Assembly: GCA_031416735.1 (NCBI GenBank) | Contig: JANOTZ010000167.1 | Coordinates: 1 to 45,723 of the forward strand | From: Frankiales bacterium | GTDB taxonomy: Bacteria > Actinomycetota > Actinomycetes > Mycobacteriales > SCTD01 | Reading direction: 5' to 3' | Length of the DNA stretch: 45,723 nt | Part shown: piece by piece, positions 8,229 to 37,103 of the stretch | Numbering within the stretch: position 1 is the first letter of the stretch | How the letters are laid out: the number at the start of each line of letters is the position of its first letter | Program-made: the position numbers and the translations under genes | Notes under the pieces: model-generated | Told to the model about the DNA's origin: nothing | Database searches by the model: none | The model's input: only the letters and a program-made list of their open reading frames with translations

Positions 8229-8710
8229 TTCTGGACGAGCTGGAATCTCCAGACGCCGGTCACCCGGGCGTCGTTGGCGACCCGTTCGGTCGACCGGATC
8301 TCGAGGTTGATGATCCCCCGGGTCGGGCGGTTACCGAAGTCGGGCGTGTAGGAGAAGTAGTGGGTGTCCTGGATCTCCGAGCGCGCCTTGGCGTCGGCGT
8401 CGTAGAGGAACCAGCCGTGCTCGCTGAGGTCCTTGTCGACGTCGATCCCGACGAGGGCCCCCTGCTGGACGCGCAGGACCGGGTTGCGGTCGGTGTTCTC
8501 GACGCAGTTGCGCTGCTCGACGCTCTGGCCGTCCCGGCAGAAGGTGGTCGCTTCGGTGTGAACCGATGTGCCGCCGCTCACGACGGTCACGCCCGGTGTG
8601 GGCTTCTCGCAGCCGGCGAGGAGCAGCAGCGCGCCGACCGAGAGTGCGGTGGCGAAGGTGCGTCGGGGGGACGAGCGGGTGGACTCTCGGGGGGACTCTC
8701 GGGGGGACAA
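8225..8710 (-). CDS. lipoprotein (DUF2771-like)
   Basis: 161-aa ORF with lipobox LLLAGC and a TTG start. It is first in the operon with mqnB-mqnD. Confidence 0.55.
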   Translation of the reverse strand: MSPRESPRESTRSSPRRTFATALSVGALLLLAGCEKPTPGVTVVSGGTSVHTEATTFCRDGQSVEQRNCVENTDRNPVLRVQQGALVGIDVDKDLSEHGWFLYDADAKARSEIQDTHYFSYTPDFGNRPTRGIINLEIRSTERVANDARVTGVWRFQLVQK

Positions 8711-24919: not shown

Positions 24920-24933
24920 TCAGGTGATGGTGA
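24920..24933. repeat. direct repeat copy 1 of TCAGGTGATGGTGA
   Basis: Seen directly. It lies 4 nt after the MFS stop and is followed by GTACGGCT, the first 8 bp of the IR. Confidence 0.95.
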
Positions 24934-25125
24934 GTACGGCTACCCGCCCGACTCCCCGCGCACCCGCCCGACTCCCCGGCCGATCTTCCCCTCGTGGTGG
25001 CCGACACGCACGGCTGCGCAGCAACAAGAGGTAGATCACCGCGACCCTCCGGCCGATCTGTCGTGGGTCACCCACCCTCCGCTCATGTCGCGAGTTCGAG
25101 ACGCCTCCGGCTTGTTAAGCCGCAC
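24934..25125. mobile_element. 192-bp miniature (deletion-derivative) copy of the IR element
   Basis: It starts with GTACGGCT and ends with AAGCCGCACTC (10/11 match to the IR end). It is flanked by direct-repeat copies 1 and 2. Internally it has a 17-bp direct repeat ACCCGCCCGACTCCCCG x2. Confidence 0.35.
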
Positions 25126-25139
25126 TCAGGTGATGGTGA
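25126..25139. repeat. direct repeat copy 2 of TCAGGTGATGGTGA
   Basis: Seen directly. Confidence 0.95.
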
Positions 25140-25275
25140 GTACGGCTTCTAAGGTTCCTTTGTTGGGCCAACTCTCTGCCTCGCGTGCCATGCCGGTGCT
25201 CACACAGGCACGGGAGCGCCGGGCTACGCGTGCAGGCCGCTGAAGGCTGGGTGTCCGTGCGTCGACTCTTCTCAG

Positions 25276-25325
25276 GACGTGACGTGACGTGACGTGACGT
25301 GACGTGACGTGACGTGACGTGACGT
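25276..25325. repeat. perfect pentanucleotide microsatellite (GACGT)10
   Basis: Counted directly; it is followed by GA. Confidence 0.95.
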
Positions 25326-26379
25326 GAAGGGTCAAGGTCGCGGAGCTCCCCGCCCGGCGCACCGATCAGCGGGGCCGGCCTGTCCGTAGCGCCTTCAACA
25401 ACTACACCTGTGGCCCGTCGCGGTCCGATCTTGGCTGCCGGGCACGCAAGCTCATGAGCGGCGCTCGTCCAGCCGGCCGGACGGCCGCTGGCTTGGGGAC
25501 GTCGTGCACCACTGGCGCTACCGGCGGCTCTCATGGGATCGGCCTGAAACTGAATCACCCCAGCAGCCCAGGAACATCTGGTGGCTCTCGCTGCCGTCGG
25601 GGAAGCGCGGCCTGGTCCAGGTGGTGACGTCGTCGACGACGATGCGCGGCGCGACGTGGGACCTGACCCTGCCTGAGCTGGCCGCGCTGCGGGGAGGGGG
25701 GCTCGCGCGCATGCAGGACACTCCGGCCGTGCCGCGTAGTTCGGGGGCTACGCGGAGTACGACGTGTGCGACGTCCATTTCGGCATGGGGCGTCTCACTG
25801 GCGGGTGTCCGTGGATGCGAAGGTGACGTGCCTCGACGTGGACGTGATCGACCCTGAGGCAGCCGCCCGATGGACGTGGCTCGACGGGGCCGAGGTGTTC
25901 GAGGTGCTGCGGCAGTCGATGCTGACCCGCGGCGCGCGCGAGTCGCTGCGCCTGGGCGACGAGACCTTGGGCCCGCCATGGGTGCCGTATCGGCCATTGT
26001 TCACCCGCCTGCGTGATCGGTGGCCGATGCGCGAGCGCAGCCACGGAGCGCAGGCCGGGTAGGTCCGCAGGCGCTGGGACGGCATCCCGAAGGGCTGCTC
26101 GGCGCGATCGGCGCCGTCGGTGAGCTGGATGGCCCGCTGCGCAGCGAGCACGGGTCGGACCCAACCGGGCACCGGACGCTCGAGTGTGTTCGACGCGATC
26201 CACGACGACCGACGCCGGGTCGCGATACGAGCACAGTTGCCCGCCCACACCTGCACGTCGGGGACGAAGCGGATGTCACGGTCTGGCTGCGGGGCGGTCA
26301 AAATGCCGCATACCTTCGGGGCGTTCAGTGGATTGGCGACAGCGGGTCGAAAGTCACCGGACCCTGCTGTACCGTCGCC

Positions 26380-27189
26380 ATGGTGAGCGTCCTGACGCGC
26401 AACAACGTCGTCATCGCCGGTGTCCCCGACGGACAACCGATGGTGTTCTCGCATGGTTTCGGGTGCGATCAGCACGTGTGGCGGGGTATCGAACCCGCCT
26501 TTCGATCAAAATACCGCACGGTCCTGTTCGATCACGTTGGTGCCGGCGGATCGGACCTGACCGCCTACGACCGTGCCCGCTACGACTCGCTGGATGGGTA
26601 CGCCGACGACGTCGTCGACATCTGTCGGGCTCTGGACCTTCGGGACGCGGTGTTCGTCGGGCATTCGGTCAGCGCGATGATCGGAGTGCTGGCTGCGATC
26701 CGGGCCCCCGAACGCTTCGCTGCGCTCGTCTTGATCGGTCCGTCCCCGCGCTACCTCGACGACGACGTCAATGGCTACGTCGGCGGGTTCGCCAAAGCAG
26801 ACATCGTCGGCTTGTTGGAGGCGCTCGACAGCAACTACCTGGGCTGGTCGAGGGCGATGGCGCAGATGGTCGTTGGCCGCCCCGACCGTCCAGAACTGGT
26901 CGCGGAGCTGGAGCAGAGCTTCTGCCGCACCGACCCGGCCATCGCCGGACACTTCGCCGAGGTGACGTTCCTGTCGGACAATCGACAGGATCTCCTTCAC
27001 GTCTCGGTCCCGACGCTCGTGCTTCAAGCCTCGGAGGACGCCATCGCCGGACCGGCAGTGGGCCAGTACGTGCACGAACTCATCGACGGCAGCGACCTCG
27101 TGATACTGAAGACCACAGGCCATTGCCCGCATCTGAGCGCTCCTGACGAGACGATCGCGGCGATGGTCGACTTCCTCGATCGGACGTGA
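26380..27189 (+). CDS. RsbQ / KAI2 / D14-like alpha/beta hydrolase
   Basis: Frame of ORF 26020..27189, with ATG at 26380, giving 269 aa. Nucleophile elbow is VFVGHSVSAMIGVLAA. Asp candidate is in QASEDAIAG and His candidate in TGHCPHLS. Confidence 0.85.
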   Translation: MVSVLTRNNVVIAGVPDGQPMVFSHGFGCDQHVWRGIEPAFRSKYRTVLFDHVGAGGSDLTAYDRARYDSLDGYADDVVDICRALDLRDAVFVGHSVSAMIGVLAAIRAPERFAALVLIGPSPRYLDDDVNGYVGGFAKADIVGLLEALDSNYLGWSRAMAQMVVGRPDRPELVAELEQSFCRTDPAIAGHFAEVTFLSDNRQDLLHVSVPTLVLQASEDAIAGPAVGQYVHELIDGSDLVILKTTGHCPHLSAPDETIAAMVDFLDRT

Positions 27190-28547
27190 CCCCGACCCCT
27201 GCCCCGGCGCCGGACAGCGCCGAGACCTTCTACGAGCAGGCCCCTTGCGGCTTCTTGACCACGACCCCCGACGGCACCATCGCCAAGGTCAACACGACGT
27301 TTCTCGACTGGACGGGTTACCGGCGCGAGGACATTCTCGGTACGCGCCGGTTCGCCGAACTACTGACAGCCGGGGGGCGGGCGTACCACGAGACGCACTT
27401 CGCTCCGCTGCTGAGCATGCACGGCGCCGTGAAAGGCGTCGTCCTCGATCTCGCGTGCGCGGACGGGCACGTCCTGGCGGTCCTCGTCGACGCGGTCGTC
27501 AGAGTTGGGCCCGACGGCAGCCCTGTGCTGACCCACGTGGTTCTGCTCGACGCTACCCACCGTCGGGCGTACGAACGAGAGCTGCTGGCCGCCCGCAAAC
27601 TCGCCGAGCGATCCGACCGGCGGGTGCGAATTCTGCACCGCGTCGTCGCCGAGACATTGGTCGGGGGCGACCGCGCCGCAGTGGTCGACACCCTCGTCCA
27701 GGTGCTGAGCGAGGTCTTCGACGGAGCCGGCGCGGCGATCTGGCTTTTCGACTCCGACGGGTCCACCCTCTCACTGGCCGGCGCCAACGACCTACCCTCG
27801 ACGCTTACGCCCCAGCTGCTGCCCGCCGACGTGTTGCCTCCCGCCGCCGCTTGCCGGGAGCGCGAGCCAGTGACGGTCGAATCGCCCGAGCAGGCCACCC
27901 TGGAGTTCCCGCTCCTGGCGGGGCCGCTTGCCCATTCAGCGTTCGCGGCCGTTACTGCCGTGCCCATCGTCGTCGGGGAGGTCACGCTCGGTTCCTACGC
28001 CGTGTTTTTTCGTCGTCAGCGCTTCTCCGACGTCGAAGAGCTCGAAATGCACCGAACCCTCGGATGCCACGCCGGGCTAGCGATCGAGCGGGCTGTGCTC
28101 TATCAGGAGCTGCGGCACGTCGCGTCTCACGACGGCTTGACGGATCTTCCCAACCGGGCCCTGTTCGACGATCGGTTGGAACTGGCCCTGGCGCGCTCCG
28201 CCCGGTCCGCCCTGCCGCTGGCGGTCATGGTCGTCGATCTGGACGGCTTCAAGCTGGTCAACGACTCGTTGGGCCACCGCGCGGGGGACCAAGTCCTGAC
28301 GGAAACAGCACAACGGCTGCGCACTGCGGTTCGTCCACACGACTCCGTGGCCCGGATCGGGGGTGACGAGTTCGCCGTGCTGTGCGAAGGCGTCGATCAC
28401 ATCGCAACCGAGCGCATCGCCAATCGGATCCGCGCGGCGTTGGAGCCCGAGATTCCCATCGGCAGCGACCTCGTGACAGCGACCGGGAGTGTCGGAGTTG
28501 TCGTCCACCGCCCAGGCCTCGGCGGGGCCCCGACGACGCCCGCGTAG
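27186..28547 (+). CDS. PAS-GAF-GGDEF diguanylate cyclase, terminated by an in-frame TAG 21 codons before the expected end
   Basis: 453-aa ORF. The GTG overlaps the hydrolase stop (GTGA). The active site RIGGDEF is intact, with I-site RPHD five residues upstream. The conserved tail LLHDADAAMYRAKAAAKKGR is encoded in the same frame after the TAG (28548..28607, TAA at 28608). Confidence 0.8.
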   Translation: MTPTPAPAPDSAETFYEQAPCGFLTTTPDGTIAKVNTTFLDWTGYRREDILGTRRFAELLTAGGRAYHETHFAPLLSMHGAVKGVVLDLACADGHVLAVLVDAVVRVGPDGSPVLTHVVLLDATHRRAYERELLAARKLAERSDRRVRILHRVVAETLVGGDRAAVVDTLVQVLSEVFDGAGAAIWLFDSDGSTLSLAGANDLPSTLTPQLLPADVLPPAAACREREPVTVESPEQATLEFPLLAGPLAHSAFAAVTAVPIVVGEVTLGSYAVFFRRQRFSDVEELEMHRTLGCHAGLAIERAVLYQELRHVASHDGLTDLPNRALFDDRLELALARSARSALPLAVMVVDLDGFKLVNDSLGHRAGDQVLTETAQRLRTAVRPHDSVARIGGDEFAVLCEGVDHIATERIANRIRAALEPEIPIGSDLVTATGSVGVVVHRPGLGGAPTTPA

Positions 28548-28981
28548 TTGCTCCACGACGCCGACGCCGCCATGTACCGAGCCAAGGCGGCCGCGAAGAA
28601 GGGGCGGTAAACGACGATCGAGGGTGCTACCGCAGGCCAGCCCCGTAGCCAAACGAGGGGCTGTGTACGTGTCTCGGACAGGTCGGTCCGCCGGAGAGAT
28701 CCCGGCCGACCAATCACCGCTCCGGACTGCTCAGGGACCCCAACGGTCGCCGCCGTTCACGCGAGCGAGCGATACACCGATCGTGTGAAGCCGAACAACG
28801 ACACCAACCCCACGCTCGTGCACACACTGGCTGCCACCGCGCTTTGGACCGCGAGCAGCATGATCAACGTCCCCACCATCATGGTGCCCGTCAGGCACGG
28901 CCCAGCCGACTTCCACATTCGCGGGAACGGAGCAGCACGTGGCCGGATGCTGCGGACGAAGGACCGACCGCGACCGCCAAC

Positions 28982-29500
28982 CAGCTGGGTCGGGACCGCA
29001 AGACGATCCGGGCCTAGCTCAACGGCGGCCGGGTCGTCGGGCAACGGGTCTGTTCGGTGCCGGTTCTGTTCGAGCCGTTCGCGGCGTACTGCGCAGCGCG
29101 GCTCGCCGAGGACCCACACCTGTGGGCGACCGCGTTGTTCGACGCGGTCGTCGAGCTCGGAATGACGCTGTCCTACCCGTCGTTCACCCGAGGCCTGCGG
29201 ACCCGAGGACTTCGGCCGGCGTGCGAGCCCTGCCGCCCGGCGAAGGGCCGCCCGGTCGCGATCATCGACCACCCTGCGGGGGTCGAGACACAGTGGGACT
29301 GGCTTGAGCTCCCGAACCAGCCGGGCCACTGGGACGACTACCGGCGCAGCAAGGCGTTCCTGCTCGTCGGGGCGCTGTCGCACTTCGGGAAGTGGCGCGG
29401 GGCGTTGTGTGAGTCCGACGACCAGGCGCACCTGATCGGTGCCTTGCACAGGGTCGCGGTCAAGCTCGGTGGCCTCGCCAAGGAGTGCCGCTTCGACCGG
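28982..29500 (+). pseudogene. istA: IS21-family transposase IstA, N-terminal fragment
   Basis: Manual in-frame reading gives QLGRDRKTIRA*LNGGR..., then ORF 29057..29566 (LFEPFAAYCAARLAEDPHLWATALFD...GVETQWDWLELP...CRFDR). There is an in-frame TAG at 29015 where Tyr is expected. The catalytic core and istB are absent, and the 3' side is cut by IR-R. Confidence 0.65.
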
Positions 29501-29558
29501 ATCCCTGTGCTCAGGTTGGGTCGAGATGGCCCAAACTCGGGAACCTTAGAAGCCGTAC

Positions 29559-29572
29559 TCAGGTGATGGTGA
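29559..29572. repeat. direct repeat copy 3 of TCAGGTGATGGTGA (native 3' end of the thioesterase gene)
   Basis: Seen directly. On the minus strand it reads ...ITIT-stop. Confidence 0.95.
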
Positions 29573-30269
29573 TCCAGGTGGCCTGGGCCACGGCGAGGAC
29601 GCGCCCGCTTCCGTCGTACAAGGCACTGCCGGTGTGGACCTTGCGGCCCTCGCCTCCGGTGAGCCAACCCTGGACCACGTAAGGCGTGCCGACCTCGGGC
29701 AGAACGTCTATGCGGCAGGCCATCCGGCCCAACACCATCGGTCGCCCGACCAGGTCCGCCGACCAGCCACCGGGACAGTCGAGTGCCGCCCACACCATCA
29801 CCGGCGAGCTCTCCGCCGGCGTCCACACCGCCGCGACCACACCGTCGCCCACCTGACCCGGCGTGAGGCCGAGCCCGTCGGTGTGCGCGGGTCCGCAGAC
29901 AAAACAGGTCGGAAACGGATGGTCACTCAGACCCGGGTACGACGAAGTCGCCGCAGCGGCCTGCTCCACCGACACGGCCGGGGGAGGGGAGACCTCGACC
30001 GTGCCGGGGACGGCCTCGGCGACGAGGACGTCTCCGTCGTAGAGGCAGCCGTCGACGATGCGCATCGTGGTGTCGAGGGGCGGCGGTGTGCGCAGCGTCA
30101 CCTGGACCTCCGCGGCCGCCAGGTGCTGCGCGAGCAGGCCGCAGGTGATGCCGCCGTTGGCCGAGCCGGGCGGGCCGTTGAAGCGTGCGCCGACGATCAA
30201 GGTGCTGCTCTCAGGAGGGGTCACCTGCGGGACCGTACCCAACGTGGGGCCGTCTAGGTTGGGTCGCAT
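29559..30269 (-). CDS. hotdog-fold (PaaI-like) thioesterase
   Basis: Frame of ORF 29559..30356. It has GARFNGPPGSANGG and PFPTCFVCGP motifs. The ATG at 30269 is preferred but uncertain; a downstream GTG is possible. Confidence 0.6.
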   Translation of the reverse strand: MRPNLDGPTLGTVPQVTPPESSTLIVGARFNGPPGSANGGITCGLLAQHLAAAEVQVTLRTPPPLDTTMRIVDGCLYDGDVLVAEAVPGTVEVSPPPAVSVEQAAAATSSYPGLSDHPFPTCFVCGPAHTDGLGLTPGQVGDGVVAAVWTPAESSPVMVWAALDCPGGWSADLVGRPMVLGRMACRIDVLPEVGTPYVVQGWLTGGEGRKVHTGSALYDGSGRVLAVAQATWITIT

Positions 30270-32181
30270 GACACGTCGCGCCCTGGTCCTGCTGGTCGCG
30301 CTCGTCGCTGCGATGGCGGGCCTGTCGGCGCCGGCCGCGGCGGCGGTTGCGACCACCGCGGGGCAGTCGACCTACCTGCCGCAGGCACCGTCGCGGGTGC
30401 TCGACACACGTAACGGGACGGGTGCCCGCCCCGGTGTGGTCGGTGCGGGTGAGACGATCGACCTCGTCCTGCCCGGCACCCCCGCGGGGGCCACCGCCGC
30501 GGTGCTCAACGTCACCGCCACGGCCGCGACGGGCACGACGGTGATTCGCGTCTACCCGCAACCCGCCGCAGACGGTGCGCCGCCGCTGGTGAGCAACCTC
30601 AACGTGGTGAGCGGCGGGACCGTCGCCAACCTGGTGGTGACCCGGCTCGGCGTCGGCGGTGCGGTGCGGCTGCACAACGGCTCGGCGACGGTCCACCTGA
30701 TCGCGGACCTCGCCGGTTTCTATGTGGACGGCGGCAGTGGTGCCGGGTTCTCAGGGCGCAGCCCCTGCCGCCTGCTCGACACCCGCGGTGGCCAGCCGTT
30801 GCAAGCCGGTCAGCCGCGCACCCTCCCACTGACGGGCACCTGCCGTGATGGCGGCGTCTCCGGGGTGCCGGCCGATGCCTCTGCCGTTGTCCTGAACGTC
30901 ACGGCCGTGGCGCCGACGGCCAACACCTTCGTGACGGTCTACCCCGGCGGGACGCGACCGATCGTCAGCAACCTCAACCCCTCCCGGGGACAGGTGGTCG
31001 CCAACCAGGTCGTGGTCCGGGTCGAGGACCTCAGCGACAGGGTGCAGCTCTACAACAACGCGGGGACGACGAACATCGTCGTGGACCTCGCGGGGTGGTA
31101 TGTCCCCGGCAGCGGTGACGTCTTCCACCCGGTCGACCCGTTCCGGGTCCTGGACACGAGGCAGAGCTCACCCGTGGCCGCCGGTGCTCCGCGGGTGCTC
31201 GGCCTCTCCGGTGCGGGGGCGCTGCCCTGGATGGCGAAGGCGCTCGCCCTCAACCTGACGGCGACCCGGCCGACAGCGAACTCGCACGTCACCGCCTACC
31301 CGGCACAGAGCGAGGCGCCCAACCCGCCGGTGGCCAGCAACCTCAACTTCCTGCGGGGTCAGGACGTCCCCAACGCCGCGGTGGTGGCGGCCGGGGAGGA
31401 CGGTGCCATCCGCCTCGCGGTCGGTGCGCAGACCGTCGACCTGGTCGTCGACGTCGCCGGGTGGTTCGGCCCGGCGGGCGACGGCTGGGACATCAGCTGG
31501 CCACAGTGCACGACCGCCGGCTCCACCACCAGCAACCACCCGACCGGCGGCGCGTTCGCCGTCATCGGCGTCACCCGCGGCACCTTCAACCTCAACAACA
31601 GCGGCAACACCTGCCTGGCCGACGAGTGGGCCTGGGCGTCGACCCTGAGTGGCGCCCCGAGTGCCTACATCAACACCGACGCCAACGTCGACAACCCGCA
31701 CTGGGCCGACGCCGGTCCCAAGGCGGTCGACTGCAGCGCCAAGCAGAAGACCAGCGACTGCGGCTATAACTACGGCTGGAACCTCGCCTCCTTCGCGGCG
31801 CCGAAGATCCCGGCGGCGCCGGGTGGGGGCAAGCCCTTCGTGTGGCTCGACGTGGAAGGTCCCTATGCCGGCGGACCGTTCTGGACCGACAGCGTCGCCA
31901 CCAACCGGGCCGTCGTGAGCACCGCGATCGCCCGGCTCCGGGGGCTTGGCTACCGGGTGGGCATCTACTCCGACCGGGCCAGCAGCACCGCGCCGGACTG
32001 GAAGCTCATCATGGGCGACTACGTCCGCACCGACGTCCAGAACTGGGTCTTCCGCGCACCCGATAACAACCCCGCCGCCCTCTGCGTCCCGGCCTCGTCG
32101 TTCTCCGGGGGGCCGGTCGTCATGGTGCAGGTCCAGCCCGGTCAGAGCGGTCAGGCCTTCGACGTCAACCACGTCTGCTGA
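30268..32181 (+). CDS. secreted protein: three tandem ~115-aa repeats + C-terminal GH25/DUF1906-like glycoside-hydrolase-like domain
   Basis: Frame of ORF 30058..32181, with ATG at 30268 and a signal peptide ...APAAAAVA. Each repeat shows VLDTR ... LNVTA ... VYP ... SNLN ... DLAG(F/W)Y. The C-terminal part reads DISWPQC ... FVWLDVEG ... GIYS. Confidence 0.6.
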   Translation: MTRRALVLLVALVAAMAGLSAPAAAAVATTAGQSTYLPQAPSRVLDTRNGTGARPGVVGAGETIDLVLPGTPAGATAAVLNVTATAATGTTVIRVYPQPAADGAPPLVSNLNVVSGGTVANLVVTRLGVGGAVRLHNGSATVHLIADLAGFYVDGGSGAGFSGRSPCRLLDTRGGQPLQAGQPRTLPLTGTCRDGGVSGVPADASAVVLNVTAVAPTANTFVTVYPGGTRPIVSNLNPSRGQVVANQVVVRVEDLSDRVQLYNNAGTTNIVVDLAGWYVPGSGDVFHPVDPFRVLDTRQSSPVAAGAPRVLGLSGAGALPWMAKALALNLTATRPTANSHVTAYPAQSEAPNPPVASNLNFLRGQDVPNAAVVAAGEDGAIRLAVGAQTVDLVVDVAGWFGPAGDGWDISWPQCTTAGSTTSNHPTGGAFAVIGVTRGTFNLNNSGNTCLADEWAWASTLSGAPSAYINTDANVDNPHWADAGPKAVDCSAKQKTSDCGYNYGWNLASFAAPKIPAAPGGGKPFVWLDVEGPYAGGPFWTDSVATNRAVVSTAIARLRGLGYRVGIYSDRASSTAPDWKLIMGDYVRTDVQNWVFRAPDNNPAALCVPASSFSGGPVVMVQVQPGQSGQAFDVNHVC

Positions 32182-37027: not shown

Positions 37028-37103
37028 TGGTGCCCCCGGAGAGAATCGAACTCCCGACGCCCTCCTTAGGACGGAGGCGCTCTATCCACTGAGCTACGGA
37101 GGC
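37028..37103 (-). tRNA. tRNA-Arg (anticodon CCT), CCA encoded
   Basis: Folded by hand. The acceptor is GCCUCCG/CGGGGGC (one G-U). The D arm is GCUC-AGUGGAUA-GAGC. The anticodon arm is CCUCC-GUCCUAA-GGAGG. The T arm is GGGAG-UUCGAUU-CUCUC. It is 76 nt long. Confidence 0.9.

Follow-up and report, generated by a model that had tools for sequence, protein, structure and literature searches.

Introduction

In Bacillus subtilis, the hydrolase RsbQ binds the PAS domain of RsbP directly, and this binding is abolished by the F55A substitution (PMC3183031). Modules that combine RsbQ with an RsbP-class PAS domain were catalogued in 2011 by Nadezhdin, Brody and Price, who recorded 45 of them with phosphatase, histidine-kinase or diguanylate-cyclase outputs in both Gram-positive and Gram-negative lineages; the PAS domain is always N-terminal in these modules, and a coiled coil usually comes next (PMC3183031). 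A recent report repeats the RsbQ-PAS module and presents an AlphaFold 2:2 model of RsbP and RsbQ, with RsbQ placed between the PAS domain and the linker (eLife 2025, PMC12143880). Here, a gene pair of this kind is described from contig JANOTZ010000167.1 of a Frankiales bacterium, whose 45,723 nucleotides are the window of this study. The pair encodes an RsbQ-type hydrolase and a PAS-GAF-GGDEF protein, and it is carried by a small transposon-like element.

The chemistry of RsbQ has also become clearer. Melville et al. have reported that B. subtilis RsbQ hydrolyses GR24 and dGR24 with covalent modification of its catalytic His (bioRxiv 10.1101/2023.12.05.570042). In vivo these compounds inhibit B. 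subtilis signalling rather than activate it, and the endogenous activator is still unknown (10.1101/2023.12.05.570042). The same butenolide chemistry has been described for a proteobacterial RsbQ, that of S. rhizophila (10.1101/2025.03.14.642314). The initial annotation of the window had stated that the ligand of RsbQ-type modules is unknown, which agrees with this literature, and had proposed a butenolide as the signal. Binding and hydrolysis of such compounds by RsbQ have been shown between 2023 and 2025; the proposal is not new, and the compounds are inhibitory in B. subtilis. Likewise, an RsbQ-PAS sensor wired to cyclic diguanosine monophosphate (c-di-GMP), which the annotation had inferred, was already published in 2011 (PMC3183031). 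Since RsbQ-PAS modules with c-di-GMP enzymes as their outputs were documented in 2011, and the perception of butenolides by RsbQ in 2023, there is little novelty in the sensor itself.

The locus resembles the B. subtilis RsbQ-RsbP system in that the hydrolase gene lies directly upstream of a gene for an N-terminal RsbP-class PAS domain followed by a long helix. It differs in output, which is a PPM phosphatase acting on RsbV in B. subtilis and GAF plus GGDEF, hence c-di-GMP, in the window, as well as in its actinobacterial host and in the truncation of the window copy. The diguanylate-cyclase modules of 2011 (Psychromonas ingrahamii A1SVT3 and A1SX34) are closer, as they share the upstream RsbQ homologue, the N-terminal PAS domain and the helical linker. 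Their output is GGDEF with or without EAL, and the window protein differs from them in architecture only by a GAF domain that lies between PAS and GGDEF. The text of PMC3183031 contains no GAF and reports only extra PAS domains, and a literature search returned no paper joining RsbQ with GAF and GGDEF beyond general discussion. Taken together, the evidence presented below makes it probable that the locus is a bipartite RsbQ-PAS sensing module with a diguanylate-cyclase output, that the cyclase of the window has been inactivated, and that the pair was delivered by the transposon-like element.

The hydrolase belongs to the bacterial RsbQ branch

The hydrolase gene (26380..27189, + strand) runs from an ATG at 26380 to a TGA at 27187-27189 and encodes 269 amino acids. 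An exact match to this protein was absent from public assemblies. Its open reading frame, Pfam matches (Abhydrolase_1/6), solved-structure matches and position in a tree all identify it as RsbQ-type. Among solved structures, B. subtilis RsbQ ranks first (1wom, E 9.1e-93, 313.8 bits), with 52% identity over 264 aligned residues, and the runner-up is the RsbQ-like protein Olei00960 of Oleispira (223 bits). Plant structures reach at most 187 bits for KAI2/HTL, 178 bits for D14 and 169 bits for DAD2. All 55 matches after 1wom belong to the RsbQ/KAI2/D14 family with at least 145 bits, and the first hydrolase outside the family, an esterase, scores 58.7 bits. The catalytic triad, Ser96 (GHSVSA), Asp220 (SEDAIA) and His248 (GHCPH), falls in the GHS, DD and GHC columns of RsbQ in the alignment. 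The initial annotation had recognised an RsbQ/KAI2/D14-type hydrolase with a candidate triad, and both the 52% identity to RsbQ and the aligned residues bear this out.

A placement of the hydrolase among the bacterial and plant clades had been suggested as a check, and it favours the bacterial side. A neighbour-joining tree built from 19 sequences places the hydrolase among bacterial RsbQ proteins and sets the three plant KAI2 proteins apart as a clade of their own in 100/100 bootstraps; it was built without D14 and DAD2, both of which score below KAI2 against the hydrolase. The plant KAI2, D14 and DAD2 receptors thus share the family and the triad with the window protein at 38-40% identity (E about 1e-50), but the KAI2 clade stands apart from it. 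Plant receptors of this family signal through the F-box protein MAX2 and the degradation of SMXL proteins rather than by way of a PAS partner. Within the tree, the hydrolases group according to the output type of their partners, which fits co-evolution of the pair.

The partner is a PAS-GAF-GGDEF protein with an RsbP-class PAS domain

The start of the partner gene overlaps the stop of the hydrolase gene in the sequence GTGA (27186..27189, + strand; GTG at 27186-27188, TGA at 27187-27189), just as had been described for the locus. As it now ends, the gene (27186..28547, + strand) encodes 453 amino acids and closes with TAG, which is supported by the open reading frame, Pfam and a structural model. 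Pfam places PAS_9/PAS_4 at residues 14-127, GAF at 162-301 and GGDEF at 313-443, with no domain N-terminal to PAS. An AlphaFold model built from 28 homologues (mean predicted local distance difference test score, pLDDT, 89) gives the layout of PAS 22-122, helix 124-158, GAF 163-275, helix 283-314 and GGDEF 324-441.

Over its first third, the protein shares 50-61% identity with the N-terminal PAS domain of many actinobacterial RsbP-type PP2C/SpoIIE phosphatases. In the alignment, a common signature of APCG...LL...YHETHFAPLL...DAT.RR.YE.ELL links the cyclase with these phosphatases, and the conserved F-alpha helix GGRxYHETHFAPLL is present in the window PAS domain (residues ~12-122; 27219..27551, + strand), which is delimited by Pfam, the alignment and the model. 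The residues that characterise the module class in RsbP are C10, L13, L48, a basic residue at 53, an aromatic residue at 55, position 56, H/Y at 59, E72 and P86. When these literature numbers are transferred by motif position, B. subtilis RsbP itself being outside the alignment, the window PAS domain has C21, L24, L59, R65, Y67 and H71 in the class positions, H68 at RsbP position 56, and P74 where RsbP has the conserved P62. The domain ends in the invariant D122-A123-T124, a near-DIT sequence; the class is marked by the lack of a DIT motif at this place. From its identity to the phosphatases and its F-alpha helix, the PAS domain of the downstream protein appears to be of the RsbP class. No solved RsbP-PAS structure was found, the best PAS matches being LOV domains of plant ZTL/Adagio proteins (E 3e-5). 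One residue is peculiar to the window: A98 (27477-27479) takes the place of a Pro that occurs in every RsbP-class homologue aligned and equals RsbP P86 by position. In B. subtilis RsbP, the P86A substitution leaves only a weak response (PMC3183031).

The PAS and GAF domains are joined by a modelled helix of 35 residues (124-158; 27555..27659, + strand), which is a candidate coiled-coil signalling linker. It has a pLDDT of about 88-90, carries a conserved YERELLxAR motif, and is longer than the helical or coiled-coil stretch of at least 21 residues by which the modules are recognised. Then follow the GAF domain (163-275) with the helix 283-314 that runs into GGDEF (27672..28127, + strand; Pfam and model), and the GGDEF domain without its C-terminal end (28122..28544, + strand; Pfam, alignment and model). 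The GGDEF motif occupies residues 392-396. Five residues upstream of it is an I-site of the RxxD type, R383-P-H-D386, which is followed by SVARI and then GGDEF. The metal- and guanine-binding residues D351, N359 and D368, corresponding to PleD D327, N335 and D344, are present and invariant in the family alignments; the roles of the PleD residues have been described previously (PMC7288161). The domain order and I-site that had been claimed for the protein are therefore found by Pfam and read directly from R383-D386, respectively. The active site had also been called intact, which is right for the motif at 392-396 but not for the domain, whose C-terminal end is cut off by the TAG.

The hydrolase-PAS pair is conserved in actinobacterial relatives

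The annotation had also called for a survey of gene neighbourhoods, and this survey shows that the pair is conserved elsewhere. A total of 81 loci were fetched, 15 with a strong match to the PAS domain and 66 matched through GGDEF only. In all 15 strong-PAS loci, an RsbQ-like gene on the same strand ends no more than 300 nt upstream, which is the case in none of the 66 others. A generic PAS-GGDEF protein whose PAS domain is 27% identical has no hydrolase. The 4-nt overlap is kept in seven gene pairs (L001, L083, L084, L085, L096, L097 and a PAS-GAF-HisKA contig), the outputs of which are GGDEF, GGDEF-EAL or HisKA, a histidine kinase. The GAF-containing form is frequent in actinobacterial relatives, with about 40 protein clusters. 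Orthologues of both genes are found at 63-89% identity, so the hydrolase-cyclase pattern is not due to chance. At the DNA level, the segment 26309..28600 (+ strand) is homologous to four orthologous contigs at 71-88% identity, and every flank differs. In a metagenome contig of 1,969 nt (P0008), the gene call runs from the hydrolase C-terminus GHCPHLSAPDETIAAMFDFLGSD into the PAS protein with no stop; this could be an artefact of the frame or a naturally occurring fusion of RsbQ, PAS, GAF and GGDEF in a single chain.

A cultured isolate, Leifsonia sp. Leaf264 (locus L096; protein P0027), has the same hydrolase/PAS-GAF-GGDEF pair with the 4-nt overlap. Its cyclase is full-length (502 amino acids) and already annotated as 'diguanylate cyclase'; the cyclases are 39-41% and the hydrolases 63% identical to those of the window. 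An intact actinobacterial member such as this one would be a convenient system with an easily measured c-di-GMP output, suited to finding out which signal RsbQ perceives and whether the hydrolase acts on its partner as an activator or an inhibitor. The sequence alone settles no long-standing question of this kind. Adjoining the Leifsonia pair is a divergent gene for a stand-alone EAL phosphodiesterase (2098-2880 of the locus), which suggests a local unit for making and breaking c-di-GMP.

The cyclase of the window is truncated

Codon 454 of the cyclase gene is an in-frame amber codon, TAG (28545..28547, + strand), as seen from the sequence and the alignment. The stranded 3' end of the gene, LLHDADAAMYRAKAAAKKGR followed by TAA at 28608-28610, lies directly behind it (28548..28610, + strand). 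In nine aligned relatives of the cyclase (39-85% identity, 470-510 amino acids), the amber column holds Gln in four and a stop in none, which is consistent with a single change from CAG to TAG. None of about 40 cyclase relatives is truncated at this position. Elsewhere in the contig TAG is an ordinary stop codon, ending 6 of 26 other genes checked.

The 453-residue product lacks the final 20 residues of its GGDEF domain. Accordingly, the GGDEF match in Pfam extends over positions 1-134 of the 161-position model, and the AlphaFold model of the 453-residue protein stops after the last beta-strand, with the terminal helix absent. Two basic residues, K467 and K471, are encoded past the TAG and match PleD K442 and R446 by motif position (YRAK...GK/RN), with an offset of about 24 that fits the other catalytic residues (D351, N359, D368 and GGDEF) as well as RxxD and takes the place of a residue-level alignment to PleD. 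The phosphates of GTP are bound by these two residues in PleD (PMC7288161). Judging from the sequence, the 453-residue protein probably lacks cyclase activity, provided that the TAG is not an artefact of assembly, and the local copy has most likely been inactivated recently. The idea of a two-part sensor driving c-di-GMP synthesis is thus right as to the kind of module, but since the amber codon cuts the protein before two probable GTP-phosphate-binding residues, the synthesis is probably not carried out by the copy in the window. This copy represents a natural allele in which a nonsense codon occurs together with a Pro-to-Ala replacement at a PAS position whose function has been tested.

Proposed mechanism and alternative explanations

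For members with intact genes, we propose the following working of the module. The sequences themselves show the homology, the order of domains, the triad, the adjacent and overlapping genes, the truncation and the insertion, whereas the contact between hydrolase and PAS domain, the ligand, the direction of signalling and the loss of activity are inferred. The RsbQ-type hydrolase would bind, and probably hydrolyse, a small butenolide-like molecule. It would then make contact with a dimeric partner, at the RsbP-class PAS domain of its N-terminus and at the linker next to it. The resulting change could travel along the long PAS-to-GAF and GAF-to-GGDEF helices and determine whether the two GGDEF domains meet productively for c-di-GMP synthesis, with the RxxD I-site supplying product feedback. 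The 4-nt gene overlap would keep both proteins co-expressed. In the window, the change from CAG to TAG removes the last GGDEF helix together with the two probable phosphate-binding residues, and the pair arrived as cargo of the 4.4-kb transposon-like element, inserted between two convergent chromosomal genes.

Several points weigh against this view. The residues of the PAS class were mapped by motif only, and the position of RsbP E72 is occupied by G84 in the window and by Gly in about half of the relatives, which have either Glu or Gly there. Activation by the hydrolase, and its direction, in GGDEF-coupled members are extrapolated by analogy with B. subtilis RsbQP, and it may be that sensing is chiefly done by the extra GAF domain and only modulated by RsbQ-PAS. 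As regards the inactivation, the ratio of nonsynonymous to synonymous substitution rates (dN/dS) in the window lineage is 0.25-0.41, equal to that of relatives and not raised, so any inactivation would be either recent or not real; relaxed selection, looked for by dN/dS, is unsupported, and there is no sign of long pseudogene decay. Moreover, since the window is a metagenome-type contig, the TAG may stem from an error in the reads or their assembly, or from a minority variant.

This last point leads to the possibility that the module is functional and that the true gene encodes an active, hydrolase-controlled cyclase of 473 amino acids, the amber codon having arisen by mistake in sequencing or assembly or representing a minority allele. 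The metagenome-type origin of the 45.7-kb contig, the single-base nature of the difference, the prevalence of Gln in relatives (which fits CAG), the still good GGDEF C-terminus LLHDADAAMYRAK in the 20 codons past the TAG and the unraised dN/dS all speak for it. On the other side, the sequence gives TAG at this place, a codon that ordinarily ends genes in the contig, the tail AAAKKGR deviates from the AGGKN/AGGKD consensus of relatives, and the same copy carries P98A at an otherwise kept PAS proline, the equivalent of P86A, which weakens B. subtilis RsbP. On balance we regard an artefact or minority allele as unlikely, although it deserves to be kept in mind. Degenerate GGDEF proteins serving as receptors are well established, and the truncated protein could similarly have a non-catalytic role, for example by binding c-di-GMP as a receptor at its RxxD site or by serving as a PAS/GAF scaffold to which the hydrolase still binds. 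The PAS domain, GAF domain, GGDEF motif and I-site are all intact before the stop, and so is the hydrolase gene. However, the fold is likely to be less stable once the terminal helix is lost, the truncation is confined to the window among about 40 relatives, and nothing points to selection having favoured the truncated form, which together make such a role quite improbable.

It would be more surprising still if the hydrolase were an ordinary metabolic esterase or lactonase that happens to lie beside an unrelated sensor cyclase, with no two-part sensor at all. NCBIfam does return 3-oxoadipate enol-lactonase, BioH and similar families for the hydrolase, but all of these matches are far under their cut-offs, compared with 314 bits for RsbQ. 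Furthermore, the adjacency is strict (15/15 loci) and specific to the PAS class, pairs with three different output types retain the overlap, the hydrolases co-cluster with their partners in the tree, and RsbQ binds PAS directly in B. subtilis (PMC3183031). This explanation is therefore given very little credence. A bipartite RsbQ-PAS module with a diguanylate-cyclase output, inactivated in the copy at hand, accounts for the locus with greater probability than any of these alternatives.

The pair is cargo of an inserted element

The hydrolase and cyclase genes had been assigned to a mobile island, and inverted repeats, 8-bp duplications and an empty site in a related genome now give this island exact borders. 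The element extends over 4,425 bp (25137-29561). Its terminal inverted repeats (left, 25137..25167, + strand; right, 29531..29561, - strand) are perfect for the first 22 nt, for which none is expected by chance. The element is flanked by an 8-bp direct repeat, GGTGATGG, on the left (25129..25136), where it represents a target-site duplication, and on the right (29562..29569); both are read from the sequence. A mini-element of 198 bp with related termini (24931..25128) stands in tandem with the large one and is preceded by a third copy of GGTGATGG at 24923-24930. The mini-element looks like a second insertion into a target regenerated by the first, since the repeat itself begins with TGA.

The empty site is provided by the Frankiales metagenome-assembled genome (MAG) L098, which shares the gene order of citrate synthase, pyridoxine 5'-phosphate (PNP) oxidase, major facilitator superfamily (MFS) transporter and a convergent gene of 213 amino acids. 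Here the two convergent genes are 6 nt apart, and the sequence reads TCAGGCGACGGTGATCCAGGTGG where the window has TCAGGTGATGG, the insert and TGATCCAGGTGG. By comparison of the two sequences, this locus is the empty site of the element. The insertion point lies between the final sense codon and the stop of a gene for 265 amino acids (29559-30356, - strand). The first bases of the right terminal repeat, TGA, are the stop codon of this gene, so the protein ends in ...WITIT as in its relatives. The locus can therefore be considered a clean case of a signalling cassette carried by a small, repeat-bounded element with an empty site for comparison.

Besides the pair, the element contains an istA fragment of the IS21 family (28967..29563, + strand), which corresponds to residues 21-217 of a relative of 451 amino acids and forms an uninterrupted frame up to the right repeat. 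No complete transposase was found inside the element, this partial istA piece being the only one, and no istB occurs anywhere in the window. The element as a whole was considered as an IS21 insertion sequence, and this was rejected because istA is partial and istB is missing. IS21 as the source of the terminal repeats is unsupported too, as the ends of a Kocuria IS21 relative (52% identical) are unlike the repeats of the window. Upstream of the hydrolase gene, the element also has an orphan open reading frame with coding-like G+C content at third codon positions (25766..26062, + strand), which has no homologue among 5.8 billion proteins except itself and no Pfam or NCBIfam match. About 11 copies of the pentanucleotide GACGT are found at 25266-25330, likewise within the element and upstream of the hydrolase gene. 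Scans for promoters, terminators and Rfam families over 24.5-30.5 kb detected nothing. In a plasmid collection, the 4.5-kb segment gave just partial rsbQ-phosphatase matches at about 67% identity, and the 72-nt element end gave no match.

A possible element family in Frankiales-like actinobacteria

The same ends were found in further metagenome contigs, where they bound elements of 257 bp (L087, 1563-1819), 222 bp (L088, 97-318) and 1.6 kb (L095, 8404-10004). Each of the three shows an 8-bp duplication followed by TGA. The 1.6-kb element sits directly after relA/spoT and carries an extracytoplasmic function (ECF) sigma factor with a probable anti-sigma partner as cargo; its TGA (8404-8406) is the stop codon of relA/spoT. 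As the element supplies the stop of its neighbour both here and in the window, the C-termini of these proteins are unchanged. The family thus spans 222 bp to 4.4 kb with no transposase inside, and it has two distinguishable end types, with TGA on the right flank in 4/4 and TCA on the left flank in 2/4. One more contig (L092) possibly carries a GNAT acetyltransferase as cargo, only one end having been found. Four of the ten metagenome matches to the 18-mer (L086, L089, L091 and L093) were taken as chance because they show no similarity beyond the 18-mer. The element end was absent from 90 other fetched loci (1.3 Mb) and from the literature search.

With terminal inverted repeats, an 8-bp duplication and no transposase, the element of the window is similar to miniature inverted-repeat transposable elements (MITEs) and to cargo-carrying non-autonomous elements. 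Unlike the known ones, it has no assigned cognate transposase or family, and its istA fragment has no demonstrated relation to its ends. We tentatively suggest that the ends TGAGTACGGCTTCTAAGG..., the 8-bp duplication and the TGA at the right flank define an undescribed family of non-autonomous elements in Frankiales-like actinobacteria. Its members would range from MITEs of about 220 bp to cargo carriers, which could move ready-made signalling cassettes to the 3' ends of genes and leave these genes undisrupted. Such a family would be the less expected by-product of the analysis, the sensor itself being of modest interest. Secondary to it, the RsbQ-PAS-GAF-output proteins may form an unreported sub-class of the module.

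Relatives and genomic surroundings

A collection with one genome per species holds no near relative of the cyclase, the top full-length matches being 38% identical (Agromyces and Nocardioides); the organism and context were therefore drawn from metagenome contigs. The closest relatives of the window genes are in uncultured Frankiales/Mycobacteriales MAGs. The sole tRNA gene in the window, tRNA-Arg (CCT) at 37028-37103 (- strand), lies 7.5 kb off the island and has no association with it. The window has a G+C content of 70%, and the chromosomal genes beyond the island region encode XPB-type helicases, a menaquinone enzyme of the futalosine pathway, a cold-shock protein, citrate synthase and PNP oxidase. 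Additionally, a branched-chain amino-acid ABC transporter, MFS transporters and MscL are encoded in the window.

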